A DNA stretch of 58,868 nt from a virus (taxonomy: Duplodnaviria > Caudoviricetes), in IMG/VR virus record IMGVR_UViG_3300017700_000348, positions 1-58,868 of that record; one strand, given 5' to 3'. Within the stretch, counting starts at the first letter, position 1. Every line of letters starts with the position of its first letter. The translations under genes and the position numbers were made by a program. Positions 3,034-42,210 of the stretch are shown one piece after another. The notes under the pieces are model-generated. The model ran no database searches, was not told the DNA's origin, and worked only from the letters and a program-made list of their open reading frames with translations.

Positions 3034-3060
3034 TTATATACGGTCCTAAACTTAAGTCAA
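3034..3060 (-). promoter_or_regulatory. repeated phage promoter TTGAC-N12-CCGT-ATATAA
   Basis: Matches the motif seen 11 times in the genome. Confidence 0.7.
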
Positions 3061-3635: not shown

Positions 3636-3663
3636 ACTATAGACGGAATAATTATAGTGTCAA
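3636..3663 (-). promoter_or_regulatory. repeated phage promoter TTGAC-N12-CCGT-CTATAGT
   Basis: Motif copy on the minus strand. Confidence 0.7.
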
Positions 3664-3691: not shown

Positions 3692-4663
3692 ATGACAACA
3701 GCCCGCGAATTTTGCGAATTTGCGCTGCGCGAAGCTGGAGTAGTTGGCTTAGGTCAAACTGCCAAGCCTCAAGATATTAATGGAGCTTTTCGGCTCCTAC
3801 ATATGATGCTAGCAGGTTGGCAGAAGCAGCGTTGGTTGGTCCCTAATTTAATTGACACTTCAGCGATAGCCAATGGTTTAATTTCCAATAAAATTGGGCC
3901 GGGACAGCATTACAATGCTATGCGTCCTGATAAAATTCAGTCTGCTTATTTTAAACAAATCTCTCCTGACAATGAAGTCAGCTATCCTCTAATTCCTATT
4001 TGGAGCTATGAGGATTATGTTAAAATTCAAATGAAGAATTTGGAGAGCTGGCCTGTTTACTATTTCTATGACAATGCATTTCCCTATGGGAATGTTTTTA
4101 TTTGGCCTATTCCTTCTTCTGACTATCAAATTCATTTAATTACTAAAGGACCTATCAATTTCACCATGCAATTGCTTGCTGGTGAAATTACTGCTGGTGG
4201 AGCTGGTTATACTGATGGAGCCTATTTAGCTGTTCCTTTTATTAATGTGAGCAGTTTAGGAGGGGACGGTACTGCTGATGTTACTGTAGCAGGTGGAGTG
4301 GTTACAGCAGTAACCATAGCTGCTGGTGGTGACGGCTATAAAATTGGGGATGTTCTTTCATTCGATACGGCTATCATTGGCGCTGGCGCAGGTGTATTGT
4401 GGCGAGTAAATAACGTAACTGATAGTCTTGACGCTGTATTTAATATGCCTCCTGAATATGAGGAAGCTATTCACTATAATCTGTGTGTTAGGCTTGTGGC
4501 GCATTATCAGTACACTCCTAATCCAGTTCAAGGCAAGTTAGCTGTTCTGGCACTCAATCGACTTAAAAATTCTAATTCTCAAATCTCTAAGCTTCAAATG
4601 CCGGGAAGCCTGAGATTTAGTCGCGGTAATTCATTCTACATATATAACGCAGATGCTAATTAA
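3692..4663 (+). CDS. head-tail adaptor (P22 gp4-like) with an inserted Gly-rich beta domain
   Basis: MTTARE..ALREAGV..G N-terminus, PPEYEEAIHYNL C-terminal motif, synteny. Confidence 0.75.
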   Translation: MTTAREFCEFALREAGVVGLGQTAKPQDINGAFRLLHMMLAGWQKQRWLVPNLIDTSAIANGLISNKIGPGQHYNAMRPDKIQSAYFKQISPDNEVSYPLIPIWSYEDYVKIQMKNLESWPVYYFYDNAFPYGNVFIWPIPSSDYQIHLITKGPINFTMQLLAGEITAGGAGYTDGAYLAVPFINVSSLGGDGTADVTVAGGVVTAVTIAAGGDGYKIGDVLSFDTAIIGAGAGVLWRVNNVTDSLDAVFNMPPEYEEAIHYNLCVRLVAHYQYTPNPVQGKLAVLALNRLKNSNSQISKLQMPGSLRFSRGNSFYIYNADAN

Positions 4664-6123
4664 TGGCTGCTCAAAGAAAGCGAGTTGAGCTAATAAGTTC
4701 TGCCTATGACGGCAAAAGCATAATTGCGTCTGGTCAAGAGTGCATTAATTTATATCCTGAAATAAATCAGCTTGATCCTCAAGCTCCAGCAAGAGTGACG
4801 TACTATCCTTTTCCCGGTACAACTCTATATTCTACTCCTACAACAGCGGATAATTCTAGGGGATGCTATCGCACTAGTCTAGGAACTGCTTTTTATGTAG
4901 TTAGGCAGAATGTATATTTTTTAAGTTCTTCTGGAGTTTTAATTTTCATTGGTGCAATTGCTGATAGGCAAAGCCAAATAAAATTTGCTGATAACGGCAT
5001 TGTCTGCGTTATGGTTGATGGGCTAAATGGATATGTAATAGATTTAGCCACTAACGCGCTAGGCATTATAACTGATCCTAATTTTTATGGAGCTGACTAT
5101 GTAGCTCTGCTAGACACATTTTTTATTTTTAATAGACCTGCTACTAATCAATTTTATATCAGTACCTCAAATGCTAGCTACGTTTTATTGACTACTGTAG
5201 GTGCATTTGACCCTTTAGATATCGCAGCTAAGTCAGGCTTTAGTGATCCTATTGTGGGCATCGTTGCAATCCATCGTGAGCTTCAATTAATTGGAGAGTT
5301 GACTACTGAAACTTGGATTGGCACTGGAGCCGCTGATTTTTATTTTCAACAGCAGCAAGGTGCGTATATTGAGCATGGTTGCGCGGCTCAATACTCAATT
5401 GCAACAATGGATGTTTTAGCATTCTTTATTATGCAGGATCAGCAAGGAAGTGGCATTGTTGCTCAATTGCAAGGGTATGACGTAACCGAAATTTCTACTC
5501 CTCGTATTGTTAATATGATTAAAAGCTATGACAGCTTTGAGGACGCGATAGGCTTTTGCTTTCAAGTTGATGACCATGCTTTTTATGTCATGGTATTTCC
5601 TACTGCTAGCAAAGGCTTATTTTATGATATTAAAAGTAAGCAATGGGGAGAATGGAATTGGAATGACGAAAATGGTAACTTCCTTAGACCTAGATTAAAT
5701 TGCGCTATGTTTGTTAATGGTATTAATGTTGGTGGAGATTGGGAAAATGGTAAACTTTTAAAGATTGATATTAATGCCTATACTGATGAAGGTTCTCCTA
5801 TTGTTAGGGTTAGAACTTTTCCTCATATGTCTGAAGGAAATTTAAAAGTTACATATTTGCAATTTCAGGCTGATATTGAGCCGGGAACTATTGTAGATCA
5901 GGAAGAAACTCCAGAAATGAGCCTTAGCTGGTCAGACGATAAAGGTAAAACTTACGGTAATCCAGTTATGGAAAGCATGGGCAGAACTGGAGAGTATGAC
6001 GTAGTGCCAACTTGGAATAATTTAGGAGAAGCTAGGGATAGAGTATTTAAATTATCTTGGTCTACCAATAATAAAACTGCGTTGAACGGTGGATTTACTA
6101 CTACTAAAGCAGCTAAAAAATGA
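4663..6123 (+). CDS. tail hub / packaged-DNA stabilization protein (P22 gp10-like)
   Basis: CINLYPE, IGELTTETW and LSWSDD.GKT..N...GRTGEY...W..LG.ARDRVFKL motifs. Confidence 0.85.
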   Translation: MAAQRKRVELISSAYDGKSIIASGQECINLYPEINQLDPQAPARVTYYPFPGTTLYSTPTTADNSRGCYRTSLGTAFYVVRQNVYFLSSSGVLIFIGAIADRQSQIKFADNGIVCVMVDGLNGYVIDLATNALGIITDPNFYGADYVALLDTFFIFNRPATNQFYISTSNASYVLLTTVGAFDPLDIAAKSGFSDPIVGIVAIHRELQLIGELTTETWIGTGAADFYFQQQQGAYIEHGCAAQYSIATMDVLAFFIMQDQQGSGIVAQLQGYDVTEISTPRIVNMIKSYDSFEDAIGFCFQVDDHAFYVMVFPTASKGLFYDIKSKQWGEWNWNDENGNFLRPRLNCAMFVNGINVGGDWENGKLLKIDINAYTDEGSPIVRVRTFPHMSEGNLKVTYLQFQADIEPGTIVDQEETPEMSLSWSDDKGKTYGNPVMESMGRTGEYDVVPTWNNLGEARDRVFKLSWSTNNKTALNGGFTTTKAAKK

Positions 6124-6422
6124 GATTACCTGTACCAAATTTAAATTCTCCATTAACTAATAAAATTGGCAAGCTCATTCCTCCTTGGAACAGTTGGTTT
6201 CAGCAATTCTCTCAGGAGGCTCCTGCTGTAGTTGATTTTAGCACTACTAATCCGCTTACTGTAAATTCTATAGGAACTGTCATTATTACTGGAGCAGCTA
6301 CAATTACTTTGACTAGAGGAGCTACTGTTATAAACTTAACAGGGCAAACTATAATTCCTGTTTCTATCGGCGATACTGTTAGCTGGACAGGTGGAGCTAC
6401 AGTGCAATTTTTGGGGAGTTAA
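6120..6422 (+). CDS. small tail protein (needle position)
   Basis: P..PW..WF N-terminus then a beta-rich segment; synteny after the gp10-like gene. Confidence 0.5.
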   Translation: MRLPVPNLNSPLTNKIGKLIPPWNSWFQQFSQEAPAVVDFSTTNPLTVNSIGTVIITGAATITLTRGATVINLTGQTIIPVSIGDTVSWTGGATVQFLGS

Positions 6423-6423
6423 A

Positions 6424-6858
6424 ATGCAGCCAGCTCTTAGTGTAGGTACTAGAGATAAAGTTTTTGCTCTTGAAGCCGCTATGCTTCAGTATCCTCAGTT
6501 AGATTTAAAAGTTGTGCATCACTTTTCTAAAGGCGTCTACGCTAGGGAGCTTCACATACCGGCTGGCGTTACTTTGGTTGGAGAAATTCACAAATTTGAA
6601 AATTTAAATATTCTTTCTGCCGGGACTATGCTAGTTACAACTGAGGAAGGCATGAAAGAGGTTTCGGCTCCATTTACAGTAGTTTCTCCTCCCGGTACTA
6701 AGCGAGCTGCCCACACTATTACCGAATGCGTATGGACTACAATTCACGGTACTGAAGAAAAAGATATTAACTTAATTAAAAATCATTTCATTGCTACTAG
6801 CGAATTAGAATGGTTAGAGTTTTGCAACGCTAATCAATTGGAATTAGGATTTAACTGA
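6424..6858 (+). CDS. cupin-like protein of the podovirus tail module
   Basis: HHFS.GVYARELHIPAG..LVGEIH motif and S.PGTKR motif. Confidence 0.6.
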   Translation: MQPALSVGTRDKVFALEAAMLQYPQLDLKVVHHFSKGVYARELHIPAGVTLVGEIHKFENLNILSAGTMLVTTEEGMKEVSAPFTVVSPPGTKRAAHTITECVWTTIHGTEEKDINLIKNHFIATSELEWLEFCNANQLELGFN

Positions 6859-7628
6859 TGATCAATAGCAGGGTCAAAATTGGATTTGAATTTGTAGACC
6901 CTTGCTTGTGCAATGCATGGGTAGCAACAGCAATTGTAGGCTCGGCAGTTCTAGGCGCTGGTGCCTCTATCTATGGTTCTAATAAAGCGGCTGAAACTCA
7001 ATCAGCTAATGCTAATCGTGTTGCTGATATGCAGATGCAGCAATATGAAAAAACCCGTGAGGACTTGTCTCCTTATCGCGCATTAGGCCAAGATGCTACA
7101 GGACGAATGACAACTAGGCTTAGTGAGTTAACTGAGCCTATTAGTGTTAATCCTGATGACTTCTTAGGTACTGACTATTATAAATTTTTAGAAAAGGAAG
7201 GTAATCGCGCCGTAACTAATTCTGCTGCTGCTAGAGGCTTGGCTAGCTCTGGTGCTGCCCTTAAAGGTGCCGCTGCATTTGCTAAAGGCTTAAATAGTCA
7301 AGAATGGAAATCTAATTTTGAAATGCAGAGAGCTAATAAGACTGATGCTTTTAGCCGTCTTAAAGGTTTAATTGATACTGGAGCTGGAGCGGCTACTGGC
7401 ACTGCATCAGCAGGACAAACAGCAGTTACAAATGCTGGCACTGCTCTAACTGGTGGAGCTAATGCTGAAGCAGCTAATTATAACAATATAGGAAAATCAT
7501 TAAGTAATCTTTCTAGTAATATCGGCGGATACGCTATGTATCAAGGTATGTATGGCAATCCGTCTGGTGGTTCTAGTGGACCTATTACTTATGGCACTGC
7601 TAATGGTCCTACTCCTTTCTACGCATAG
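6858..7628 (+). CDS. DNA ejection protein (gp7-like)
   Basis: Gly/Ala-rich N-terminal hydrophobic stretch; NSAAARGL.SSGA.LK motif. Confidence 0.75.
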   Translation: MINSRVKIGFEFVDPCLCNAWVATAIVGSAVLGAGASIYGSNKAAETQSANANRVADMQMQQYEKTREDLSPYRALGQDATGRMTTRLSELTEPISVNPDDFLGTDYYKFLEKEGNRAVTNSAAARGLASSGAALKGAAAFAKGLNSQEWKSNFEMQRANKTDAFSRLKGLIDTGAGAATGTASAGQTAVTNAGTALTGGANAEAANYNNIGKSLSNLSSNIGGYAMYQGMYGNPSGGSSGPITYGTANGPTPFYA

Positions 7629-10976: not shown

Positions 10977-11097
10977 TTTAAATTGTAGGACGATAGGGTC
11001 TAGACAGCTCCATTTGAAGTAGGCCAAGATTATTAGTAGTGTGGGCATCCAAATTAATCTGCGAAATTTAAAAATTACCGTTAGCAGGAAAAGTAAA

Positions 11098-13950
11098 ATG
11101 AAAACGTCCATTTTTAAAACTTTCTTATTGTCTTTGTGCATTGTTGCTAACACACATTTAGCTTACGCGCAAACGGCAAGCATTCTTCCTCCTGCCAAAA
11201 CACAATATTTGGATAATAATGGAAAGCCTCTTACTTCAGGTAAAGTATTTAATTACATTCCGTCTACCACAACTTTTAAAACTACATGGCAGGACGCAGC
11301 CGAAACCATTCCGAATACTAATCCAGTTATTTTAGATGCTGGAGGTAGAGCTAAGATATTAGGAGATGGCTCATATCGGCAAATTGTAAAAGATAGATAT
11401 GATAATGTTATTTGGGATGCAGTTACATCTTCCACTGGTACTAGCAGTGGAGGCTCTACTGCTACTGGAGACGGAGATTTAGTAGGGACAATTAAACCTT
11501 GGGCCGGGACAACTGCTCCTAATCAATATGCATTTACTTATGGTCAGGAGGTTTCTAGAACTACTTATGCTATTTTATTCACAGCTATTACTTCTTCTCA
11601 GTCTACATTTTGTAATTCTGGCAGTCCAACTCTTAGTGGATTAAGCGACACTACTAATTTTTGGATAGGCATGAGCTTAGAAATTTCTTGTGTTGCTGCT
11701 GGATTTTCTACTGTAGCTTCTAAAACTTCTACTACTGTCACAATGGCTGCTAACGCTAACGTAACTACCAATACTACTGCTATATTCTTTCCTTGGGGAA
11801 GGGGGAATGGCACTACTACCTTTAATTTACCAGATTTTAGAGGTTTTGCTATAGCTGGTAATAATAATATGGGTGGTGTTGCCAGCTCAATATTAACTAC
11901 AACTTATTTTGGAGCAACTAATCCTAACTCTATTGGCGCATCTGGAGGAAATCAAAGCACTACGCTGTTGCCTGCTAATTTACCTCCTCATACTCACACT
12001 TCTTCTACTCTGACTGATCCCGGTCATACTCATACTTTAAATGGCTCTGTCTTAGTAGCTGGAGCTACAATAGGTGGAGGAGCTTTAATATCCAATACTA
12101 CTGGAACAGCTCAATCTAGCACTACTGGTATAACTATTTCAGCAAATACTGGTACTAATGCTTCTGGTACGTCAGACGCTTTTTCTAGAGTATCCCCTTA
12201 TAAAACTTCAAATTATATTATTAAAATAACTCCAGATGCTAATTCCGCTACTGCTAGTGGTGTTACCAGTATTCAAGGTATGACTGGTGATATTGCTTGC
12301 GGTACAGGATTAACTTGTACCGGAAACATTATTAGCGCTAATGTAACTACTGCTAACCCTACCTCCAATATAACTTTAACAACTATAAATGGAGTAGCTA
12401 GTACAGCTATGCGCTCTGATGCTGCACCGGCACTTAGTCAGGCTATTTCACCAACATGGACAGGCAATCACACTTTTACTCCATCTAGTGGTTTTGCTAC
12501 TGTTACAAATGGGAAAAGCCAAGTTTACAATACTTTTGCAAGTGCTGTTCCTGACGCCATAACTGGAGCAGGAGTGTATTTTGAAACGCAAAGTGGCGGC
12601 GCTGGCTTAACCGGGACTGGCCCAATTAGTGGCGGATACTCCAGCATCATTGAGGGTACGGCTGGCAGTCTTGCTGTTATTGATAAAATTGGTTGGATTG
12701 GATCATGCTTAATTATAGTAAATGACGCTGCTGGTGGTGGCTGCTACGGTTTAAATAGCACCGCTATAGTTACTGGCACTGGTGCAATCAATCGTTTAGT
12801 TGGCCATGAAGCTGATATGGAGATTAGAGCTGGCGGATCAGCTAATTATCGCTACGCTTATTCAGCAGTTAATGCTAGTGTTGGACAAGCTACTATCTTT
12901 GATGCTGCTTATATGGCTGGAAATTTTACAGCAATAAGCGGCGCATTTAAATGCTTACTGTGTTTGACTAATTCTTTAGGTTTTGCTCCTATTGATCCTA
13001 CTGGAAAAATATTTGGCTCCGATACGGCATACACTATTGATACTGTTCTTGATGTTAGTAATGCTACTATAACATCGTGGCTTTGGAACCATACCAACAG
13101 CAAAATGTCAGGTAATGGTGAATTTACTTCTGTTGATGTTAAGGTAACTGGTGGTCCAGCTACGATTACTACTGGACAAGGAACTATTGGAGCAAGTGCT
13201 AACTCTGGTTTGATTTTTAAAGGCCATGGTGCTATTCAGGATATGCAATGGATAAACAATTTAGGAGGAACTGTTTGTGTCGTCGCAACTGGAACTACTA
13301 CACTAAATTGTAATACTATAACTATTGCTAATGCTCTTGGGGTTGCTAGTGGAGGGTTAGGTACAACCTCTGGAACTTCAGGAGGAGTGCCTTATTATTC
13401 GAGCGCTACTACAACCGCTTCTTCCGCACTTCTTACTAATAACGCATTAATGACAGGTGGAGGAGCAGCCGCTGCTCCTAAGGTTCTAGGTTCATTAGGA
13501 ACAACTACGACTGTTCTACATGGAAATGCTGCTGGCCCTCCTACGTTTGGCGCTGTTGATTTGACTGCGGATGTAACAGGCATATTACCAATAGCTAATG
13601 GTGGTATGGGTAATGCCGCTTGGACTTCATTCACTCCGACATTTACTTGCGGAACTGGAGTTTTTACTACTGCCTCAGCAACTAGAATGACAGTTGGCAA
13701 AACAACTTTTATTCAATTTGATACAACTCTGTCTACATTAGGCTCTTGTACTACCCCATTTACATTTACTCTACCTACTACTCCGCAATCAGGAGGAGCC
13801 TTAATGGGGCTTGAGGCAACTAACACTAGCTCTGCTATTTCTTGTCAGCTTACAGCAGCAAGCGCAACAGCCACATGCCGAAAGAATGGAAATGTAGCTG
13901 CTGCTGTTAACGATAGGCATTTAGTTACAGCAGTGTATACTAACCAATAA
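11098..13950 (+). CDS. tail fibre/spike with N-terminal signal peptide, virion-binding domain, tail-collar domain and Thr/Gly-rich shaft
   Basis: AGGA RBS before ATG 11098; MKTSIFKTFLLSLCIVANTHLAYA|Q; NGKPL..GKV..Y...TT...NTNPVILD..GRA domain; collar motifs VSRTTYA.LF and G.G.TTFNLPD.RG; H.H motifs. Confidence 0.85.
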   Translation: MKTSIFKTFLLSLCIVANTHLAYAQTASILPPAKTQYLDNNGKPLTSGKVFNYIPSTTTFKTTWQDAAETIPNTNPVILDAGGRAKILGDGSYRQIVKDRYDNVIWDAVTSSTGTSSGGSTATGDGDLVGTIKPWAGTTAPNQYAFTYGQEVSRTTYAILFTAITSSQSTFCNSGSPTLSGLSDTTNFWIGMSLEISCVAAGFSTVASKTSTTVTMAANANVTTNTTAIFFPWGRGNGTTTFNLPDFRGFAIAGNNNMGGVASSILTTTYFGATNPNSIGASGGNQSTTLLPANLPPHTHTSSTLTDPGHTHTLNGSVLVAGATIGGGALISNTTGTAQSSTTGITISANTGTNASGTSDAFSRVSPYKTSNYIIKITPDANSATASGVTSIQGMTGDIACGTGLTCTGNIISANVTTANPTSNITLTTINGVASTAMRSDAAPALSQAISPTWTGNHTFTPSSGFATVTNGKSQVYNTFASAVPDAITGAGVYFETQSGGAGLTGTGPISGGYSSIIEGTAGSLAVIDKIGWIGSCLIIVNDAAGGGCYGLNSTAIVTGTGAINRLVGHEADMEIRAGGSANYRYAYSAVNASVGQATIFDAAYMAGNFTAISGAFKCLLCLTNSLGFAPIDPTGKIFGSDTAYTIDTVLDVSNATITSWLWNHTNSKMSGNGEFTSVDVKVTGGPATITTGQGTIGASANSGLIFKGHGAIQDMQWINNLGGTVCVVATGTTTLNCNTITIANALGVASGGLGTTSGTSGGVPYYSSATTTASSALLTNNALMTGGGAAAAPKVLGSLGTTTTVLHGNAAGPPTFGAVDLTADVTGILPIANGGMGNAAWTSFTPTFTCGTGVFTTASATRMTVGKTTFIQFDTTLSTLGSCTTPFTFTLPTTPQSGGALMGLEATNTSSAISCQLTAASATATCRKNGNVAAAVNDRHLVTAVYTNQ

Positions 13951-13961: not shown

Positions 13962-14507
13962 ATGATTGACCGTAAGAAATTCTTTGATGGAGTTAGACAG
14001 CAACCTTTCTATGGTAAGCTGACTAAAGGTCAAGTTCAAGGTATGTCAGCTATCCTAGACGAATGGGAAAGGCGTAAGCTGACTGATTTGCGATGGCTTG
14101 CCTACATGCTTGGTACAGTCAAATGGGAGACTGACCATACTATGCAGCCTATCCAAGAAGGAGGAGGTATTAAATATTTAAAATCTAAAAAATACTATCC
14201 TTGGTATGGTCGCGGATATGTGCAGCTCACTTGGGAGAAAAATTATCAGCGTTTTCAAATTAGAGTTTTAAAATTATTCGATAAAGATATTATTGCTGAT
14301 CCAGATTTGGCAATGGAGCCGGATGTTGCAGCCTTCATTATGTTTGAAGGTATGATTAGAGGTGAATTTACTGGTAAAAAATTATCAGACTATTTTAATG
14401 ATACCAAAACAGATTGGCTTAACGCTCGCAGGATTATTAACGGAACTGATCGAATGGCAGAAATCGCCGCGATATCCAAACAATTTTATGCTGACTTGAT
14501 GCTTTAA
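13962..14507 (+). CDS. endolysin, GH19/lysozyme-like
   Basis: LAYML.T..WET..TMQPI.E, YGRGYVQLTW..NY and ARRIING.D motifs. Confidence 0.85.
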   Translation: MIDRKKFFDGVRQQPFYGKLTKGQVQGMSAILDEWERRKLTDLRWLAYMLGTVKWETDHTMQPIQEGGGIKYLKSKKYYPWYGRGYVQLTWEKNYQRFQIRVLKLFDKDIIADPDLAMEPDVAAFIMFEGMIRGEFTGKKLSDYFNDTKTDWLNARRIINGTDRMAEIAAISKQFYADLML

Positions 14508-14562
14508 GCTTGTAGTTCCATTTAAAATATTTTACAGCCTTTGATAGAAAGGAAATTTTAAG

Positions 14563-15009
14563 ATGGCATTTTCAGTAGAAACTATTGGTAGATTGTGGGC
14601 ATCAGGCCGCAATTACGCAAATTTAGGTATGGGTTTTGCTGCTGGCATTGGTGTTCTGTCAGCAGCTCAAAATCAGGGCATTAATGATGCACTAACTCAA
14701 ATCTACAATGGCGTTTCGCAGGTTGTCACTGGAGCAACTTCACTTTGGCAGATTGTAGCTGTAGTAGCTGCTCCTATTATTGGTCCTTTACTAGCTCGAA
14801 TGGCCAGCAAGTCTGCTAAGACTGATAGTCAAGCCGCTGCTGTTACCGCTGCTATTAAGGATACCGCCACTCCTATTTCTGCTGAAGTCAAAGCTTCAGT
14901 ATTAGAAAGCGTAGTCAATATTGAGGAAGTTAAGACTCCTGTAATTAGAGTTGCTGATCCTGTTTTAGCTAACATGGTCCCTTCTGATAAAGTGGTAGCA
15001 ATTAAATGA
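14563..15009 (+). CDS. membrane protein of the lysis cassette (holin-like)
   Basis: Two hydrophobic segments; follows the endolysin. Confidence 0.5.
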   Translation: MAFSVETIGRLWASGRNYANLGMGFAAGIGVLSAAQNQGINDALTQIYNGVSQVVTGATSLWQIVAVVAAPIIGPLLARMASKSAKTDSQAAAVTAAIKDTATPISAEVKASVLESVVNIEEVKTPVIRVADPVLANMVPSDKVVAIK

Positions 15010-15443
15010 AAAAGCTTATAGCAATTGTATTAGCGTTAGCTCTTACAGGTTGCGTAGGAGAATTTGGCACTCGCATTACAGATAGCATTTCAACGGTTAA
15101 AGATACTGTTGCTGCTGTTGCTAAATTTACTATTACTCAGGGTCAGCTTGATACAGCTCGCACTAGCTATAATGGAACAGTGTTAGCTTCATTGCGTCGT
15201 TATGCTCTCCTGCCGCGCTGTAAGACAGGCCAAAGCTTAACCATCAATAATCCTTGTCATGATAGGCTCATGCTAGTGAAAATTCGTAATGCCGATAAGG
15301 TTGTAGGACAAGGATTTAAGGATACTCAAGCTAGACTTGATGCTGGTGATGATAGTGGAGCTGTTCTAGCTTACGATACTCTTAAAATTGCAATTGATAC
15401 TGCTAAGGCTCTTATTGCTAAAAGTGGAGTTGAAGTATTATGA
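15006..15443 (+). CDS. lipoprotein (spanin-like)
   Basis: MKKLIAIVLALALTG|C lipobox. Confidence 0.7.
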   Translation: MKKLIAIVLALALTGCVGEFGTRITDSISTVKDTVAAVAKFTITQGQLDTARTSYNGTVLASLRRYALLPRCKTGQSLTINNPCHDRLMLVKIRNADKVVGQGFKDTQARLDAGDDSGAVLAYDTLKIAIDTAKALIAKSGVEVL

Positions 15444-15658
15444 TTAGCATAGCTTCAATTAAATTAGCGTTATCTTTAGCTATGACTGCTTATCAATTAG
15501 GTAAGGACGCAGCCCCTTACATTAAACTCGCATACGAAATTCAGTTTAAAAATAAAGTTTTGACGGCTGAAGAACGTAAAGCGATGGAGGATCAGGAACA
15601 ATCTTGGCGCTCAGAGATTGACGAAATCATAGCCAAAGATGCAGCGGCTACTGATTAA
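15440..15658 (+). CDS. small lysis-cassette protein
   Basis: ATGA-coupled to the upstream gene; amphipathic N-terminus. Confidence 0.55.
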   Translation: MISIASIKLALSLAMTAYQLGKDAAPYIKLAYEIQFKNKVLTAEERKAMEDQEQSWRSEIDEIIAKDAAATD

Positions 15659-15709
15659 AATTTAAAAAACTGATCCAAATTGACCAAGGCTAGGGAGCAT
15701 TTTTCTATT

Positions 15710-15985
15710 ATGGATCAGGAAGTATTAAAACTTGGAATTGCTGGTATCGTATGCGCTATTTTAATATGGGAACTTCTTAAGTCTGAAAAACGAGAAGAAA
15801 AAAAAGACATTCGCATTCAGATGCTAGAAAATCAATTACGTGAAAGCTATGACGAAAGAGTATCGGCAGCAGATAGAATAGGTGATGCTCTACATGGCCA
15901 TGCTTTAGCTTCTAATAATGCGGCTATAGCTCTACAGCACTTAACTTCAGAAGTTAAAGAATTAAAAGGCCGAAACAATGGATAA
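15710..15985 (+). CDS. single-TM plus coiled-coil protein (holin or i-spanin candidate)
   Basis: LGIAGIVCAILIW segment followed by a coiled coil; GGGAG RBS. Confidence 0.55.
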   Translation: MDQEVLKLGIAGIVCAILIWELLKSEKREEKKDIRIQMLENQLRESYDERVSAADRIGDALHGHALASNNAAIALQHLTSEVKELKGRNNG

Positions 15986-16854: not shown

Positions 16855-16883
16855 CTTTCTATACGGTATTATTAATTAGTCAA
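16855..16883 (-). promoter_or_regulatory. repeated phage promoter TTGAC-N12-CCGT-ATAGAAA
   Basis: Motif copy. Confidence 0.7.
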
Positions 16884-33657: not shown

Positions 33658-33687
33658 TTGACAGGGGTAGATTAGCCGTGTAGAAAG
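33658..33687 (+). promoter_or_regulatory. repeated early promoter TTGAC-N13-CCGT-GTAGAAA
   Basis: Motif copy followed by a GGAG RBS and a small ORF. Confidence 0.75.
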
Positions 33688-33898
33688 GTTGGTAACGGAA
33701 CAGATGGAGAGAGCAAATGGCTAAAGCAACAATCAAAGCTCGCAATGAACTTTTTAAGATCATTGAAATGGTCAATAAAGGTCAGTCAGTTGGTTTGTCT
33801 AATTCTAAGCTTATTGTAGCAGCTAAAGAGTTTGATGCTGAAGGTTTGATTAAGCTCCATGATAATTATGTTTGTGAGCGTTTATTTTAAAATAACAG

Positions 33899-33928
33899 TT
33901 GACTAACTTAAGCTAGCCGTGTAGAAAT
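33899..33928 (+). promoter_or_regulatory. repeated early promoter
   Basis: TTGAC-N13-CCGT-GTAGAAA. Confidence 0.75.
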
Positions 33929-33955
33929 AGTGTATCAACTGAAGGGAATGAGAAA

Positions 33956-34156
33956 ATGATCAGCCTAAACGAACAGCTCAACTCTAAGTATGCTGAAGGT
34001 CTTTTCGCAGTTGTTTGTACTAATGAGGTTGTTATCCCGGTTCGTAATCGCTCGATGATCCGCGCAGCTAAGGATGGCCAGGGCTGCTATATCCAGCGCG
34101 GTAAGAAAGAGATTTATGTATTTGCCTATCAAATTAAGTTTGCAAAGAATGCTTGA
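33956..34156 (+). CDS. small early protein
   Basis: Downstream of a motif promoter; its stop TGA lies within the next TTGAC. Confidence 0.6.
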   Translation: MISLNEQLNSKYAEGLFAVVCTNEVVIPVRNRSMIRAAKDGQGCYIQRGKKEIYVFAYQIKFAKNA

Positions 34157-34384
34157 CAATTTTTAAATTAAGTGTATTGTCTAATTGTCAGCAAAATGGA
34201 GATGTAGATGTATATGACCGGAATGACCAACTTCGCTAGCTTGGCTGAAGCTCAGATTAATCAGCCTATTCACAATAAGAACTATGTGATTGAAGCTCAC
34301 AAAGACGGAACAGCTTCAATTGTTTATCTTCAGGATAAGCCGGTTCAAAAGGGTCAAGTTGAGTATAAAGGATAATAAGAAAAT

Positions 34385-34411
34385 GGGAGCGCAAATGCTC
34401 CCTAGTTTTTT
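34385..34411 (+). terminator. intrinsic terminator
   Basis: GGGAGC-GCAAAT-GCTCCC followed by a T-tract. Confidence 0.7.
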
Positions 34412-34421
34412 AACTTAACGC

Positions 34422-34450
34422 TTGACACTTTAAAACTAACCGTCCATAGT
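34422..34450 (+). promoter_or_regulatory. repeated early promoter
   Basis: TTGAC-N13-CCGT-CCATAGT. Confidence 0.75.
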
Positions 34451-34475
34451 GGACAAATCAAATGGAGAATGACAA

Positions 34476-34646
34476 ATGAAGAATGTTAGCATGGGTTCCA
34501 AGAAGAAGGTTTTCAAGTCCATCAGGCTCGCTGCTGAGGCTGCTGGAGTGCCTTACATGACTTTTTATATGCGGTTGCGAGCTGGTGATAAGCCTGCTAC
34601 TGCGGCTAAGAAGCCGGTTCGGAAATATGTGAAGCAGGAGGCTTAA
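34476..34646 (+). CDS. small HTH-like DNA-binding protein (56 aa)
   Basis: FKSIRLAAEAAGVPYMTFYMRL..G; GGAG RBS. Confidence 0.6.
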   Translation: MKNVSMGSKKKVFKSIRLAAEAAGVPYMTFYMRLRAGDKPATAAKKPVRKYVKQEA

Positions 34647-34880
34647 GTGAACCAGAAACAAAAAGATACACTTAATAAATTTATCGGTACACTTGAGGAA
34701 ATCAAATCTGAAGTGGAAAATGCTCAATCTGAGGAACAAGACAAATTTGATAATATGAGTGAAGGATTGCAACAGACTGAGCGTGGACAAGCTATTGAAC
34801 AAGCTGCTTCTGATTTAGGAGATGTTGTAAATAGTTTGGAAAATGCTATTAGTGAATTGACTAATGTGGTAGGTATGTAA
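34647..34880 (+). CDS. acidic helical early protein
   Basis: EEQDKFDNM.E.LQ..ERG motif; AGGAGG RBS. Confidence 0.65.
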   Translation: MNQKQKDTLNKFIGTLEEIKSEVENAQSEEQDKFDNMSEGLQQTERGQAIEQAASDLGDVVNSLENAISELTNVVGM

Positions 34881-34888
34881 TTTCACTA

Positions 34889-35085
34889 CCTCTATGCAGC
34901 AATGATCAAAGGTTGGAATAGGTTGTCCAATAGGACCGCATTGGCGGGCTGAGGGTAGCAACTGACAAGCAACAGAATGCTTTCCGTAAAAGAGCCTAAG
35001 TCTAAGCTCAGGATGCATAGAGGAGCTACCTTGCTACTGCCTGAGTGCTGATGTAGCCTGCTAGCAAGGTAGCACTTTAATTTTT
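34889..35085 (+). ncRNA. candidate structured non-coding RNA
   Basis: 10-bp closing stem CCTCTATGCA/TGCATAGAGG enclosing short hairpins, then a 12-bp stem GCTACCTTGCTA/TAGCAAGGTAGC and a T-rich tail. Confidence 0.5.
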
Positions 35086-35349
35086 AAAATAGTAATTGAC
35101 ATTGTTGTAAGTCCTGTTATTGTATAAATACACCAGCAACAAGGAGCTTCCAATGTTTCTTTCTTACACGATCTTCTCAAACGCTGCTTGCACTGAAGTT
35201 CGCGAAGTGGTGAATGCTTATGGTAGCAAAGCTAACATGCTGCTGAAGGCATTCCGCAATGTTGGGAAGTGTGAGCCGAAAGAGGGTCAAATTATTGCTG
35301 GTTGCCGCATTGATCGTATCGGCTCAGAAGAATACAGGGAGGACTAACG

Positions 35350-35544
35350 ATGAAACATTCTCGTTATCTCTGCATTGGTCCCGGTGGCCGCAAATGCAAT
35401 TGTTGCTTTCCTTCTCCCGGTTCTAAAGCTCGCAGGCTGGAGTATCGCCGCGCTAAGAAGCTGGATAAGAAGGAAGCTGTTAAGGTTGAAATGAGCCAAT
35501 TGATTGATCGTGGTCCGGTAAACTTTGATAAGTTTGAAGGATAA
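35350..35544 (+). CDS. small basic Cys-containing protein
   Basis: GPGG.KCNCC; GGAGG RBS. Confidence 0.55.
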   Translation: MKHSRYLCIGPGGRKCNCCFPSPGSKARRLEYRRAKKLDKKEAVKVEMSQLIDRGPVNFDKFEG

Positions 35545-35547
35545 CTA

Positions 35548-35576
35548 TTGACAACTAAATTAATCCGTCTAAGTTA
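35548..35576 (+). promoter_or_regulatory. repeated early promoter
   Basis: TTGAC-N12-CCGT-CTAAGTT. Confidence 0.7.
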
Positions 35577-35600
35577 TGGCTAACAGATGGAGCTAAGCAA

Positions 35601-35771
35601 ATGACAGAATACTCTTATAAAGATAATCTAAACTCTGTTTATGATCCTGAGACAGGTTTATATGTAGTCATTGATGAAGATGGTTATGTGGTCAGCCATC
35701 ATGCTTCTAGGAAAGAAGCTAACGATAGAATAATCGAAACGCTGGCTAATCCTAAACTTGATAATCTGTAA
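35601..35771 (+). CDS. small acidic protein (YDPE family)
   Basis: GGAG RBS; YDPETGLYVVIDEDGY. Confidence 0.55.
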   Translation: MTEYSYKDNLNSVYDPETGLYVVIDEDGYVVSHHASRKEANDRIIETLANPKLDNL

Positions 35772-35958
35772 AGGATAAGCAAATGACTAAATCAGAGCTG
35801 TTCAAATTCGCTCATTCAATTGCCAAGTTTAAGAACATTGCTTTCTATGGTAGCTATGCTAAGGCATTTGGTGCTGTGTTGGCTGATTTGTATGCCAAGG
35901 GCTATCACAAGGGGCCTTGCACTGGATTTCAGATTGTTGAACCTCGGAGGCTTTGGGC

Positions 35959-36090
35959 ATGATGTATACCTCATATGATCCTGAGTTAGACCTTTGGTGT
36001 ATTTGTGATAACGAAGGCTACCCAAAAGAATATTTTAATTCTGAAGAAGAAGCTGATCAAGCTTTGAAACTTTTGGAGCAAGCAGAATGA
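35959..36090 (+). CDS. small acidic protein (YDPE family)
   Basis: GGAGG RBS; YDPELDLWCICDNEGY. Confidence 0.5.
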   Translation: MMYTSYDPELDLWCICDNEGYPKEYFNSEEEADQALKLLEQAE

Positions 36091-36523
36091 AAATGCGCGT
36101 CCAAGCTCAGCACCTACAGGCTGGTGATATTGTGGGAAGTGGTGAGGTTGTGGTTTCAGTGCAAACTTATTTACGCAATGAGCCAAAGAAAGTATCTGTA
36201 TATCTCAAAAATCCTAATCGCGCTGTTATTGTCCCTACTGTAGTTGATAGAGTAAGCACTTGGGGTAAGTACACAGAAATTAATATTGAACGTCCTGAGA
36301 AGGTGGAGAAGGAAGTTGTCAGTGAGAATTGGTCGGATGGAATGAACTAATGCCTGATCACATTCCCTACTTTGATCCTCCATTAACTTCTAAAGAAATT
36401 CTGATGCTAATTCATGCCTTGAATGAAGCTAGGGAAACTGGCATGCTATATGAGATTGCCAAGCCTCATGAGATTGAGCGGCTTAGGACTAAGCTGAGTA
36501 ATGTGAAATAGGGAAAATTTAAA

Positions 36524-36718
36524 ATGTCCAATAAGCTTCTTCTAACAGGATATCAGCTAGGAGCTATGGCTGCTCTTGTTGCTAGTCAAGGAAAAAGCAT
36601 TCCTATGACTATTCCAAATCGTTATGGTGGAGGAAGGCAACAGGGTAAGAGCGCGGCATTAGAAGCGGAGTATCCTGAGCTTAAAAAGAAATGGCCTAAT
36701 GCGCCATATGGCCGTTGA
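36524..36718 (+). CDS. 64-aa protein with terminase-like Q-motif and Walker A fragments
   Basis: LTGYQ ... YGGGRQQGKS. Confidence 0.55.
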   Translation: MSNKLLLTGYQLGAMAALVASQGKSIPMTIPNRYGGGRQQGKSAALEAEYPELKKKWPNAPYGR

Positions 36719-37087
36719 ATACCACGTAAAGATAAACAACATCGTTTGAAAGGATTGCGGCCGTGATCAGCACTCAAGTTATTATTCAATTTGGTACTGG
36801 TACGCTCAACATGGGCTGCGCTAAATGCAAAGGCGAGCCTGATCAGTGGTACATTGCTATTCGTCCTAAGATTGGTCCTCCTGCTGTTGTTGGTGAAAGC
36901 ATTGAGACTAAAGATTTTGATGACAGTCAGGAAATTATTTTGACTTTCCCAACTGAAAAGCAGATGCTCATAGTTAAAGGAGCGTTTGTAAACAAGAGCT
37001 ATGAGGAGACTAAAGAGGCTTGGGATAAAGCTCAGGCTGATAAGGAAGAAACCTTTGCTTGGAATGTCGTAACTAAGGCTGACAGCA

Positions 37088-37342
37088 ATGATTAAATTTT
37101 TAAAACTTACTGAAGTATTAGGTAATAGCGCCACTCAAGACTTGTTGCTTAATCCGGCTCATATTGCGTCAATTAAAATTTCTTCTAAAGGTGTGGACAC
37201 TCATATTTGTATGAGTGGAGCCAATATTAAATATTATTTTGTTCGGGAGAGTGTTGAGCAGATTTGGGAGATGTTGAATGATGACGGTGAGGGTAAGCCT
37301 CAACCAATGGTTATTGACTTAAGAGAAAGATATGTGAAATGA
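37088..37342 (+). CDS. FlbD-like small beta protein
   Basis: MIKF.KLT.....L.LNP.HI..I......T.I.......V.ES.EQI pattern. Confidence 0.5.
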   Translation: MIKFLKLTEVLGNSATQDLLLNPAHIASIKISSKGVDTHICMSGANIKYYFVRESVEQIWEMLNDDGEGKPQPMVIDLRERYVK

Positions 37343-37463
37343 TATCCGAGCTTCGCGCAATGTGGCCTGAGGAGCTTAAGCGCTTCTCTGACGCTGAACT
37401 AGCGAAAGAGTATGAGGACTTCAAAGCCTCAGAGAATGGTAACGACGATAGCCGATTTCTTGA

Positions 37464-38003
37464 ATGGATTGTGGCAACAGATGGATAGGAGCTAATATGG
37501 CTTGGGGTAAGGAATGGCCTAATAGTTTAGCTGGTAAAGCTATTGCTGAGCGAATTAAGCAAGAGCCTGAGCATCCTGTTAGTACTTTAATTAGAGAGAC
37601 TGGAGAAGCGCTAATAGCTTCACTAACGCCCATCGGCATAGGCATTGATCTAGGAGCCGGTGATAGCCAAACTGTTCTGACTACGTTTGATGATGGGAAG
37701 ATTGGTCAGCGGATTATTTCTAGTGAGGAATTATATGCCGAATGGCATAATGCATCAAAAGATTTAAAAGAAGCTGCTACTGTAAAGGTCTACAATAATC
37801 AAATGCCCACACATGATCCTTACACTAATCCTAATGCTCAGCTCTATTATGAATGCAAGTGTGGTGCTATCCTTGATCCGGGTACAAAAAGCTTTGCAGC
37901 GCTCAACAATGCTGCGAGCGACAAGGGATGGAAAGTCCGTTGGCGTAAGGATGGAATGGGTTATGAGCCGTTCTGTGTTGAGTGTGGGAAGGATGTAGAA
38001 TGA
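37464..38003 (+). CDS. hypothetical protein with C-terminal Zn ribbon
   Basis: C.CG...A...GW...CVEC; true start may be further downstream. Confidence 0.55.
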   Translation: MDCGNRWIGANMAWGKEWPNSLAGKAIAERIKQEPEHPVSTLIRETGEALIASLTPIGIGIDLGAGDSQTVLTTFDDGKIGQRIISSEELYAEWHNASKDLKEAATVKVYNNQMPTHDPYTNPNAQLYYECKCGAILDPGTKSFAALNNAASDKGWKVRWRKDGMGYEPFCVECGKDVE

Positions 38004-39662
38004 TAGAAGTTTTAAAAGAATGGCGAGATGCAAGAGAAGATATATTTAAAAATACTTCTAAAATTTCAGAAGAAAACACTGAACGGTGGAAACGTTTATC
38101 TGAAGCTGAGCATAAGTTAATGATATTGGCTAGAGAATTATCATGATCCGCGCATGGCTAATTAGAGCTTGCATCTCAATGCCAATCCTGATAGGGTTGG
38201 CAAAATTAATAGAATGGAGATTAATAAAGCAATGAATACATTCTCATTTATGCTTTGGATGGTTACATTTTGTAGTGATGGTTCTGGAATTGTAAAAGAA
38301 AAATGTGAAGATCATTCTCCTTCAACATCTGTAACTATGAGTTTATTTGGTGGAAATGGCTATTGCGACTTTAACAATACAAATGAATGTAAGCCTGACC
38401 ATCTTATTCGGATTGAGCAGGATGGTAAACTGATTATATCAGTGCCAGTTTCGGTATTAACTCTAGAACAACTAAATATGTTGATGCTAGCGGCTAAACC
38501 TATTGATAGAGCTATAAAATGAGAAACGATATTAACCGTCACTACAATGATATCCCTTGGTATCATGCTGTACCAATTGGAGTGCTAATCTTTCTTGTAT
38601 GGTTGGTGGTACGATGACTGTAATTAATATTTTAAACAATCCTCAGAAGCTCGCTGTTAGATTTAAGCTGGTGAATGAGCGTATTAGGTTGGCTGAGGAG
38701 CGTAAGGCAATCCGGCTTAGGTTGACGTTGGCTATAGTGGAGGATATATTACGTGATAATTGATCCTATTGAGCTTATCATTTCAGAAGCTTTAACTGCA
38801 ACAGGCATAAAGCATACTCATGAGAGTGAGAATAAAGAACAGCGCTTTGACTTTATTTTAACTATTTCTGGTGTAGCTATCGAGTGTAAGCAATTTCCAT
38901 CTGACAGAACTGAAGCTCAAATTTTAAAAGCTGACAACTTGATACTAATTCAAGGTCGCACAGCAGCTTACGCTTTTGCTAATATGATTAGGAATGCAAA
39001 ATGAAAAACCGTAAGCAGCTCCTAGCGGACTTCTATTTAGAATTGCTAGCTGTACCGTATAATAGTCCATTCAGGATTAAGCATTTGGCTTTGTATAGCG
39101 AAGTGCGTAACGCAATGGCTAGAGAGCTTTGCGAGACTGAGGAAGTAGTGCAGACTATCTTTGAGCGAATGGCTGAGGAAGATAAATGAAAATAGAACTT
39201 CCTGATGAACGTATAATAGCTATGCTTGGCTTTCATCCTAGCACTCCAATAGCAGAAGCAATTGGTATGTTTATGAGGAATAGAACATTAAATAAAGATG
39301 TAGTATTTCATCGTATTGGTGAAATGGCTTTGGAGAAATTTGTAGATGACAACCTATCCCGCTAAAAAATTAAAGCGTATCGAGAAGCCTAAGCCTTGTG
39401 TGGAGTGTCAAGTTAACTTAGCTAATCCTCCTAGTAAACTCTGCCCCGACTGTCAGGCTTATAAGGAGCATCAGAAATGAGCAATGATATGATGGTGGGT
39501 ATTATTATTGGATATGGATTTGCTAAATGGGTTATGCCTTATTTTAAAGAAATGTTTTGCAAATGAAATATTTTAAAAATAGTCCTCGTAATTGCTATTT
39601 GTTGTTAGTGTTTATAGTCTTGTGTATAATGATAGCTGTGATGACAGGGAGCTTGATTATTC

Positions 39663-39899
39663 ATGCCAGATAATGAAATGATTGAGCGAGTATGCGCTGC
39701 CATATTTAATGATAATGCTGGAGCATGTGCTTGCTTAGGGCCTTTACCGTGGTGTAGATGTAGGAAAAACAAAGCTATAGAAATAATCAAAGCTATGCGA
39801 GAGCCTACTGAGAAGATGATTGCTGCTATGAATTTTGTTCATAGAAAAGACGCCATTGTTGTTTGGCAGACAGTAATTGACGCGGTGATTAATGACTGA
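39663..39899 (+). CDS. hypothetical protein (AMREPT family)
   Basis: MIERV..A...I.AMREPT..M...W...IDA. Confidence 0.6.
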   Translation: MPDNEMIERVCAAIFNDNAGACACLGPLPWCRCRKNKAIEIIKAMREPTEKMIAAMNFVHRKDAIVVWQTVIDAVIND

Positions 39900-40541
39900 C
39901 AAGCAATCTGTAGAGGACGCAATTAAGCAGCTCGTATTGGCTAATGCTGATGGTGAAATCAAGTCTCTAGCGTTTGTTATGATCAATCATGATGGTGAGC
40001 CGGAAATGCAAATTGCAATGGCTCCCGGCACAGCTTATGCTGTTGTGACAAGTCTGGAAATTTTAAAAATTAATATCATCAGCAAAATTATCAATGATGG
40101 TGGTGTAGCTCCAAAGGATAGACAATGACAAGAGCGGTAGCTAGAGCATTGTGTGAAGCTGGATATATGAGCGTAGCTGAATATTTAAAGCTATGTGAAA
40201 AGAATGGATGGAAATAATGACAGCCATTGCTTGGGCTATTATATGGATAGCCACTTCTCACTATAGGGATGTTAAATTAAAAGGTTATAATGCCTTTGGT
40301 ACTGTCATTTGCTTTTTTATGATGTTTGCTTTAACTATTAAGGAATTGGTCCGATGACTGATCCAACAGGCAATGCTTTACTGGCTAGGATTAAGGAGCT
40401 GGAGGAGGCTTTGGAGCCTTTTGCTGATGCTGCTGAAAATACGGACATGTGGCCAGATGATTTTTATATTTCTGATAGTGATGTAGTAGGCTCTAGTTTA
40501 AGATTTATAGATATAAGAAATGCTCGCAAGGTTCTAAACAA

Positions 40542-41024
40542 ATGACTTGGGGTAATCCTCCTCCTTTCAAACCTGATCCCCCTAAGAAGGGGAAGAAGAT
40601 AACTCCTGAAGATTTAGCTGCTTCAGGCAGTGAGGACGGAAATCAGGCCGCCGTTTTCTGTTGGGCTGCTGATGAAGTCATTGCTGGACGCTACCCACAA
40701 CTGCAATGGATGTTTGCAATTCCTAATGGAGGCTCCCGGCATATTGCTGAAGCGACTAAGTTTGTGGGCACTGGTATTCGCTCTGGTGTTCCTGATATAT
40801 TTTTGCCTACTGTTCAACCTAATGAAAAATTTAAAACTTACTATGCTGGCTGCTTTATTGAAATGAAAGCAGAGAAACGACGCGGCCAAAAGAATGGTGG
40901 TGTAGAAGAAAATCAAATTGAATATATGGAGTATCTTGCTAGCTCTGGCTACTACTGCAAAGTATGTTATAGCTGGACTGAGGCTAGGGATACGTTGATT
41001 GCTTATTTGGAGGGGAAATTGTGA
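40542..41024 (+). CDS. VRR-NUC domain nuclease
   Basis: FAIPNGG.R, GVPDIFL, FIEMK, Q..Y...L...GY...VC. Confidence 0.85.
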   Translation: MTWGNPPPFKPDPPKKGKKITPEDLAASGSEDGNQAAVFCWAADEVIAGRYPQLQWMFAIPNGGSRHIAEATKFVGTGIRSGVPDIFLPTVQPNEKFKTYYAGCFIEMKAEKRRGQKNGGVEENQIEYMEYLASSGYYCKVCYSWTEARDTLIAYLEGKL

Positions 41025-41146
41025 TTATTGTAAAGATGTCATTCTCAGAAGCTAAGCAGATGCTACTATCTAAAGGTGTAGCTGACCCTTATTCTGTATT
41101 GCAAGCTTTAATTGCTCTAGGTGTGATTAAGTTGGAAAAATAACAA

Positions 41147-41175
41147 TTGACTTTAATTTTTTAACCGTATAGATA
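41147..41175 (+). promoter_or_regulatory. repeated early promoter
   Basis: TTGAC-N13-CCGT-ATAGATA. Confidence 0.7.
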
Positions 41176-42045: not shown

Positions 42046-42210
42046 TGTATTATGTTGGGTTGATTTTACTATTTTTCTCATTTGTATGCTTAATTTCAGG
42101 CATTAAATATGCCAGAAAGAAAGATTATGCTACAGCTAGAATTGAAGAAATTTTAATGGTGCTATGGCTAATAGCTGCTCTAATTTGTTTTAAATAATTT
42201 AAGAATACTG

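Follow-up and report, generated by a model that had tools for sequence, protein, structure and literature searches.

A Podovirus Tail Fibre with a Predicted Signal Peptide and Paired Cysteines Suggests Virion Assembly in Two Compartments

Introduction

To our knowledge, the accepted teaching is that tailed-phage particles assemble entirely in the reducing cytoplasm, and the tailed-phage proteins known to us to take the Sec route are lysis and exclusion factors, not virion parts. In this paper, we describe a tail fibre gene (positions 11,098 to 13,950, plus strand) in the IMG/VR virus record IMGVR_UViG_3300017700_000348, whose whole stretch of 58,868 bp is called "the window" below. The window is a complete virus record with direct terminal repeats at its ends, and the virus is a podovirus. 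The product of the fibre gene begins with a leader that resembles a Sec signal peptide and continues into a head-binding domain and a long mature part, the cysteines of which lie in neighbouring pairs.

The Fibre Gene and Its Domains

The fibre open reading frame (ORF) runs from ATG 11098 to the stop codon at 13948–13950 and encodes 950 residues. It lies 3' of the ejection-protein genes and directly 5' of the endolysin gene, where such phages usually have their tailspike gene. A Shine–Dalgarno-like AGGA (11086–11089, plus strand) stands 8 nt 5' of the ATG, and AGGA or AAGG motifs of a like kind are found before many genes of the window. The next Met after the start is residue 192. Other start-like codons in frame among the first 60 are TTG (codons 11, 13, and 38) and ATT (codons 5, 15, 29, and 54), none of them preceded by a Shine–Dalgarno-like motif. 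Codons 5–15 fall within the leader, codons 38 and 54 fall within the part of the protein that leaderless relatives also have, from their first residue on, and codon 29 specifies the opening Ile of the conserved I-L-P-P motif, which comes after the initiator Met in those relatives.

The predicted mature N-terminus, Gln25, opens a P22-type tailspike head-binding domain (11170–11442, plus strand; residues ~25–115) without any Cys. When AlphaFold2 was run on a 40-row alignment (A1), the leader helix and the head-binding and collar domains were modelled well, with a predicted local distance difference test score (pLDDT) of 76–91 for residues ~30–112. Foldseek matched this segment of the model to 9vyg, 9jg6, 7sg7, 7eeq, 1lkt, and 8eb7; in structure, the segment most closely resembles the head-binding domains of tailspikes from cyanophages Pan3 and Pam1, from P22 (gp9), and from Sf6 (gp14), and a phmmer search of the PDB returned 7eeq_A ("Tailspike head-binding domain") at E = 0.006. 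No second head-binding domain was found elsewhere in this complete genome. The fibre is the only hub-binding spike-type protein, but not the only possible adhesin, because a 155-residue protein of the same phage is labelled "short tail fiber protein".

A tail-collar domain region follows (11464–11862, plus strand; residues ~123–255; pLDDT 72–96), in which the Pfam family PF07484 (Collar) matches residues 130–164 with E = 6e-12 and 45.8 bits against a cut-off of 24. The shaft after this domain carries two His-x-His motifs, H298/H300 and H310/H312 (11989–12039, plus strand), and gives a weak Pfam Gp10_C match (residues 271–371, E = 0.013), which is under the cut-off. Such motifs have a metal-binding role in T4 fibre proteins and may have one here. 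The remainder is a variable distal part (12253–13947, plus strand; residues ~386–950) with six neighbouring Cys pairs, and a Pfam scan of the fibre at E ≤ 1 found no C-terminal domain of the type IX secretion system kind. A module of ~100 residues in this part (within 12388–13947, residues 430–950) is common to several hundred proteins at 50–75% identity. The proteins that share it have different N-termini, about half of them with signal-like leaders; one is named autotransporter adhesin by its source, and another comes from a Bacteroidetes metagenome-assembled genome.

The Leader as a Probable Signal Peptide

The leader (11098–11169, plus strand; 24 codons) has the anatomy of a Sec/signal peptidase I substrate: Lys2 and Lys7 are followed by a 17-residue uncharged stretch that ends in A-Y-A, and then by Gln25. 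It holds the sole unpaired Cys of the protein (Cys14). A first-pass annotation of the window, made from the letters alone, had quoted this leader from ATG 11098 with a ribosome-binding site, had described a basic n-region, a hydrophobic h-region, and an A-x-A site directly before the virion-binding domain, and had pointed out that no in-frame ATG lies between leader and domain; the ORF, the AGGA motif, the position of the second Met, and the residues just named bear out these statements.

A search with fibre residues 1–130 found 423 proteins, and the homologue counts given below rest on the 120 listed among them. The leader is present in frame in all 120, in-frame length changes included, a pattern beyond what chance would give. 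At the predicted cleavage site, the −1 residue is A (96), G (17), C (4), or S (3), and the −3 residue is A (106), V, S, L, T, or I throughout; this count is partly built in, because our site-finding script accepted only sites that obey the −3/−1 rule, but the offset of the site from the conserved I-L-P motif is nearly constant (4 in 116 homologues and 5 in the other 4), and the script therefore had little freedom. The +1 residue is Gln in 115 and is overall Q, D, E, or V, never Pro. A 17-residue uncharged run precedes the site in 118 homologues, and the n-region, taken as the 8 residues before this run, is net positive in 119. In the wider set of 188 proteins compared below, mean hydropathy is 1.8–3.9 at positions −16 to −8, Ser at −13 excepted, and positions −7 and −5 are polar.

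The leader also evolves like a signal peptide. Mean pairwise identity among 188 proteins is 0.48 in the leader versus 0.70 in the next 40 residues, and the core positions stay hydrophobic. Unrelated leaders of the same grammar are found in distant lineages (loci L063, L073, L075, L077, L078, L092, L095, L097, and L098) and likewise in many of 78 further family representatives (P0122–P0199). Signal peptides evolve in this manner, whereas a structural helix with specific contacts would not. The position of the leader Cys is occupied by Cys in 92 of the 188 homologues. The fibre leader has no lipobox (Cys14 is preceded by L-S-L, and its −1 residue is Leu) and no twin-arginine (Tat) motif, the leader of the window being without Arg. 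AlphaFold2 predicts a helix at residues 2–23 (pLDDT ~70), followed by a low-confidence linker. Among 108 ORFs of the window, our own reading of the N-termini from a crude hydrophobicity scan identified only three leaders of the signal peptidase I type (in the genes that start at 11098, 48989, and 50144) and one lipoprotein (15006). Taken together, these comparisons strongly support a cleavable Sec-type leader directly before the virion-binding domain, and export and cleavage of the fibre are predicted on this comparative basis.

Leaderless Relatives and the Spread of the Family

The same N-terminal domain occurs without a leader, at 46–57% identity, in Pseudomonas phage PAE2, Rhodoferax phage P26218, and a spring-water podovirus. 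Leaderless prophage fibres are present in four Burkholderiales (Paraburkholderia, Achromobacter, and two Pigmentiphaga), and leaderless fibres are also encoded on dozens of IMG/VR contigs, mostly of 33–40 kb. In these proteins, the Met stands 2–4 residues before L-L-P or I-L-P, and some of the genes have a stop codon 1–5 codons upstream of this Met. Because the Met of the relatives sits so close to the motif, the predicted cleavage of the fibre would give nearly the same N-terminus as their initiation does: Gln25 is four residues ahead of I-L-P-P, near the position of their initiator Met.

Leader-bearing genes are found on ~54–60-kb contigs of the window's lineage, with conserved neighbours, and in at least two other podophage contexts (L073 and L075), where they adjoin ejection-protein genes. 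The family has ~268 representatives at 50% identity with E ≤ 1e-30. Since the same pattern occurs in distant lineages and in a large family, it would be a common strategy and not an oddity. In L075, a 59-kb podophage contig, the leader-bearing hub-binding fibre is followed (L075:4590–10221) by two large ORFs whose leaders end in A-H-A before a Gln; one has 987 residues (14 Cys), and the other has more than 251 residues and runs off the locus. Judged by these leaders, the whole set of spike-like proteins appears to be exported in this phage.

Cysteine Pairing

The fibre has 15 Cys, namely Cys14 in the leader and 14 in the mature part, at positions 172/198, 401/407, 537/549, 619/622, 727/738, 851/884, and 916/927. 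These are the 14 mature Cys in seven neighbouring pairs that the first-pass annotation had reported. Collar domains usually carry a Cys in a P.GW..CDG-type motif. The earlier remark that this Cys is absent also stands, as the stretch reads APNQYAFTYG, and no motif of this type occurs in any of the 120 listed family members; the collar domain has the pair Cys172/Cys198, which is invariant in all 120.

The mature Cys count is even in 116 of the 120 homologues, within a range of 2 to 22, the leader holds one extra Cys in 79, and mature residues 1–110 are free of Cys in every one. An exhaustive search clustered at 50% identity (14,983 matches at E ≤ 1e-3 and 268 at E ≤ 1e-30) supplied the 78 further representatives mentioned above. 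Three of them have no site by the rule and were left out, and the mature count is even in 73 of the remaining 75. Four complete and divergent leader-bearing fibres, with 2, 4, 8, and 4 Cys, are even without exception. Leaderless homologues served as a control. From this set, truncated ORFs, ORFs of fewer than 400 residues, and nine loci without a Met start by the pattern (L004, L019, L022, L023, L028, L029, L049, L076, and L080) were omitted, and duplicates were merged (51 to 45). Only 21 of the 45 unique leaderless homologues have an even number of Cys, and yet Cys frequency is alike in the leaderless versus leader-bearing comparison (1.20% vs. 1.24%). The difference in parity gives p = 5e-13 in a Fisher test that is uncorrected for relatedness. 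As a partial guard against relatedness, 147 proteins in which the anchor motif is present and the variable distal part reaches 150 residues or more were clustered by that part; 76 of the 77 clusters are even.

Two further signals concern the arrangement of these Cys. The median spacing is 20 residues within pairs (n = 740) and 100.5 residues between pairs (n = 624); the corresponding medians in the leaderless controls are 28.5 and 30.5. Where the first 470 mature residues are aligned, the Cys columns that vary do so in matched pairs, both members being present in the same sequences (16/16, 40/40, and 6/6). Even counts, local pairing, and gain or loss in pairs are the known signature of structural disulfides. 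Among 118 proteins that share the distal module, even counts were found in 48 of the 58 that have signal-like N-termini and any Cys, and in 15 of the 42 without a signal, by a crude classifier whose cut often falls inside the leader and with 7 of the 118 dropped as unclassified. The mature Cys are thus strongly supported, on comparative grounds, as candidates for disulfide pairs, and in these comparisons the predicted disulfide-pair signature tracks the presence of the leader. The alignment of homologues that the first-pass annotation had suggested as a check shows that leader and paired Cys go together and that leaderless homologues have no parity bias.

The Gene Neighbourhood

The window encodes a P22-like portal (Pfam, 2.3e-135), a large terminase, and, by Pfam and PHROG matches, a scaffold protein, a major capsid protein, a gp4-like adaptor, a gp10-like hub, and a gp7-like ejection protein. 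It also encodes a DNA polymerase, an NrS-1-like primase-polymerase domain, and a single tRNA-Leu. The P22 gp4-like adaptor (3692–4663, plus strand; PHROG head-tail adaptor Ad3) and the gp10-like tail hub (4663–6123, plus strand; PHROG head closure Hc3) have neither a leader nor a hydrophobic N-terminus. The PHROG match for the Ad3/Hc3 genes is at 3.9e-89, and in the same region (3692–6123) there is a Pfam P22_Tail-4 match of 20.5 bits, slightly below the cut-off of 21. Adaptor and hub are the expected docking site of the fibre. A complex prediction with three mature head-binding domains, the gp10-like hub, and the C-terminal part of the gp4-like adaptor scored 0.00; it was run without controls and speaks neither for nor against docking.

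At the position of P22 gp26 (the tail needle) lies the gene for the 155-residue protein (6391–6858, plus strand), which has no leader and 3 Cys and which matches the PHROG families "short tail fiber protein" and "tail fiber adhesin" (2e-42). The gp7-like ejection protein (within 6391–7628, plus strand) is likewise without a leader. Immediately 3' of the fibre gene is a lysis cassette (13962–15985, plus strand). Its first gene encodes the endolysin (13962–14507; PHROG endolysin, 9e-28), which has neither a signal nor a signal-arrest-release (SAR) segment; a hole-forming holin would be required because this endolysin is without an export signal. The roles of the other three products were read from sequence: a holin-like membrane protein (14563–15009), a lipoprotein with an L-T-G-C lipobox (15006–15443), and a protein whose N-terminal membrane segment is followed by helical, charged sequence (15680–15985). 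The lipoprotein has 145 residues, which is long for an outer-membrane spanin, and two Cys besides that of the lipobox; it could act in exclusion or as a unimolecular spanin.

The 121-nt spacer before the fibre gene (10977–11097) is open in the frame of the fibre and translates to a pseudo-peptide that is conserved in close relatives and not in distant ones. It holds CCGT and then TAGCAGG, which resemble the core of the promoter-like sites repeated in the window, and it is probably conserved at the DNA level, as a late promoter or another regulatory element. Eleven copies of these sites, TTGAC-N12/13-CCGT followed by a −10-like TA-rich hexamer, were found against 0.23 expected, and none of 100 shuffles reached 11. 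They lie at 3040–3060, 3643–3663, and 16863–16883 (minus strand) and at eight positions in 33658–42775 (plus strand).

Two Small Putatively Exported Proteins and the Host

The other two leaders of the signal peptidase I type belong to small proteins of 207 residues (48989–49612, plus strand) and 136 residues (50144–50554, plus strand), which are encoded between terS and terL. Each has a leader with A-x-A before Gln and 4 mature Cys, and the two genes flank a leaderless 133-residue gene of similar composition. Homologues of the former are present in all four, and of the latter in three of the four, complete genomes of the same lineage; none of either was found in the genome of L075. No Pfam or PHROG family was found for these two proteins, and BLASTP found no similarity between them and the fibre. 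Both are candidate partners of the fibre in the periplasm. A Pfam scan of 39 proteins of the window, small ORFs excepted, found no phage-encoded thioredoxin/Dsb or signal peptidase family.

All three window proteins with leaders of this type have Gln at +1 (sites at 11167–11175, ~49055–49063, and ~50198–50206). This recalls the Q-rule of the Bacteroidetes, as given in PMC5837995, and phage proteins that obey the Q-rule are described in PMC10367356. A Bacteroidota host was considered on this ground and judged unlikely, in view of the AGGA motifs 8–12 nt before many starts and the promoter-like sites with a sigma-70-like spacing. Because of the AGGA motifs and the TTGAC-type sites, we argue for a host of the proteobacterial type, an argument that falls short of proof. 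The nearest leaderless relatives infect Betaproteobacteria and Pseudomonas. A megablast search with the first 20 kb of the window found no cultured phage, and scans of genome contigs for the host found nothing beyond the four leaderless Burkholderiales prophage fibres. One possibility for the preference for Gln is a protected pyroglutamate N-terminus.

Proposed Assembly Pathway

The best overall explanation of these observations, to which we give a probability of about 70%, is a Sec-exported, cleaved, and disulfide-bonded fibre that is added late to the particles. Three independent comparative signals, each with controls and all drawn from sequence, support the export and disulfide part of this explanation well. 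Most likely, the fibre, here and in hundreds of relatives, folds in the periplasm and joins a cytoplasm-built particle only at lysis. The preprotein, with its 24-residue Sec signal peptide, would be exported unfolded across the inner membrane, and signal peptidase I would cut after A-Y-A24 to leave Gln25, perhaps cyclised to pyroglutamate. The 926-residue mature chain would then fold and trimerise in the periplasm, where its 14 Cys would form seven local disulfides, presumably through a host oxidase of the DsbA type. Meanwhile, capsid, portal, hub, and ejection proteins, which have no leaders in the hydrophobicity scan, would assemble in the cytoplasm. When the holin holes open, or at lysis, fibre-less particles would meet finished fibres inside the outer membrane, shortly before lysis, and would bind them through the head-binding domain.

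The last of these steps, attachment after the inner membrane is breached, is inferred from the gene content. If the fibre is a virion part, attachment when the compartments merge is forced, because the other virion proteins have no leaders. P22 particles bind their tailspikes as the last assembly step, and tailspikes can be added to finished heads in vitro. Late addition is mechanistically plausible here because the fibre has a P22-type head-binding domain and the phage has P22-like hub genes. It is speculation that export also hides the fibre from cytoplasmic sensors or lets it block receptors.

Several points weigh against this explanation. Mature Cys counts are odd in 6 of 195 family proteins. 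Leaderless homologues are also Cys-rich, with up to 15 Cys, and Cys richness alone is therefore not diagnostic. The structural model is unreliable past residue 386 (pLDDT below 50 at residues 386–845), where most of the pairs lie. The script that located the cleavage sites took only those that obey the −3/−1 rule and used one fixed offset in 116 of 120 homologues, so that the count of sites is partly built in. Many signal peptides are less conserved than the leader is in the core family, and the leader could for this reason have an additional role. The host Dsb system is an assumption, and attachment of the fibre after lysis would face dilution.

Among the alternatives, the one that survives best, although we regard it as unlikely, accepts export and disulfide bonding and holds that the fibre acts mainly or also off the virion, with attachment to particles minor or absent. 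As a periplasmic or released protein that binds or destroys receptors, it might mask receptors, exclude superinfecting phages, or keep progeny off debris. Export is supported equally well under this alternative, the phage has two more small exported proteins with paired Cys, the leaderless 155-residue protein could serve adsorption, and the place of the fibre in the virion is a prediction from the genes. Against this alternative, a purely non-virion protein would not need a head-binding domain, and this domain is the best-conserved part of the fibre (0.70 pairwise identity), keeps the P22-type fold, and is the sole one of its kind in the complete genome; the tailspike position after the ejection genes is also kept, both here and in distant leader-bearing lineages.

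Still less probable is that the hydrophobic segment stays uncleaved, either as a membrane anchor or as a structural helix for trimerisation or hub docking, and that the fibre folds in the cytoplasm. The helix that AlphaFold2 places at residues 2–23, at moderate confidence, and the fair conservation of the leader in the core family are consistent with such a role. However, the −3 and −1 residues are small in all 120 listed homologues, unrelated leaders in distant lineages share the same grammar, and leaderless relatives function without the segment. The leader Cys, present in about half of the family (92 of 188), stands outside the pairing, and the even counts and pair covariation are absent from leaderless homologues. 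There is neither a lipobox nor a twin-arginine motif, and a type II anchor would still put the head-binding domain in the periplasm. That the start codon is misassigned, so that translation begins downstream and the leader is untranslated, is very improbable, for although gene callers picked differing upstream starts in some homologues and start calls are uncertain in general, there is no Met before residue 192, the in-frame TTG and ATT codons have no ribosome-binding motif and lie inside the leader, at I-L-P-P (29), or where they would truncate the head-binding domain (38 and 54), all 120 homologues preserve the leader at the protein level, and AGGA stands 8 nt before ATG 11098.

Implications

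A late-added, exported fibre may be part of a wider scheme. It is an evenly balanced question whether a large and widespread uncultured podovirus lineage builds its virions in two compartments as a rule, with the whole receptor-binding apparatus exported by Sec, trimmed by signal peptidase I, stapled by disulfides in the periplasm, and docked, once the holin has opened the inner membrane, on fibre-less particles made in the cytoplasm. Under that reading, the apparatus would consist of the hub-binding fibre and the two small paired-Cys proteins in the phage described here, and would include two further large spike-like proteins in L075. If this is true, the progeny would need the Sec, LepB, and Dsb functions of the host to be infectious, and morphogenesis would have its final step coupled to lysis.

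The exported hub-binding fibre itself, if confirmed, would add a compartment to virion assembly, make the final step of morphogenesis depend on the holin, turn the secretion and disulfide machinery of the host into phage dependency factors, and explain how fibres come to use disulfide-stabilised modules. The matter bears on annotation, in which the presence of a signal peptide is often taken to rule out a structural role, and on the engineering of receptor-binding proteins, because fibres of this kind would probably misfold when expressed in the cytoplasm.

Comparison with Known Systems

A literature search, to which supplements and most subscription journals were out of reach, turned up signal peptides on phage endolysins and spanins, on coat proteins of filamentous phages, and on proteins without a known function, but none on a fibre or spike of a tailed phage, and no periplasmic assembly of one. 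As far as we found, a periplasmic route for a tailed-phage fibre has not been described, which does not prove its absence in print.

The P22-type tailspikes (P22 gp9, Sf6 gp14, Pam1, and Pan3) have in common with the fibre the head-binding fold and the gene position after the ejection genes. Their chains begin with the head-binding domain and fold in the cytoplasm, whereas the fibre has a 24-residue leader and seven Cys pairs; the native P22 tailspike is described as being without disulfide bonds in PMC3357383. The body of the fibre also differs from these tailspikes in being a collar-domain fibre, and no beta-helix spike is recognisable by Pfam or in the model. The leaderless fibres of its own family, gp26 of P26218, the unannotated fibre ORF of PAE2, and the prophage fibres, share its head-binding domain and gene position, but they have no leader, no Cys parity bias (21/45 even), and no pair spacing.

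Exported endolysins, with signal peptides or SAR segments, are late phage proteins that use Sec and are held in the envelope until the holin fires, as described in PMC6116005. These are lysis enzymes and not structural proteins, and the endolysin of the present phage is itself without a signal.

The G3p protein of Ff phages contains disulfides and needs periplasmic oxidation. It is a receptor-binding protein of the virion, made as a preprotein whose signal sequence engages SecY, according to PMC8310372. Ff virions are assembled at the envelope and extruded through it, with G3p anchored in the membrane until its incorporation, whereas the particle considered here is tailed and icosahedral, built in the cytoplasm, and released by lysis. 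The mosaic adhesive trimer (MAT) fibres of Bdellovibrio are phage-fibre-like and bear signal peptides, as PMC10769870 describes, so that phage-like fibres can take the Sec route. Unlike the fibre described here, they are encoded by the bacterium for its own surface and are not virion parts. With these differences, G3p of Ff and the MAT fibres of Bdellovibrio are the nearest functional parallels to the fibre.

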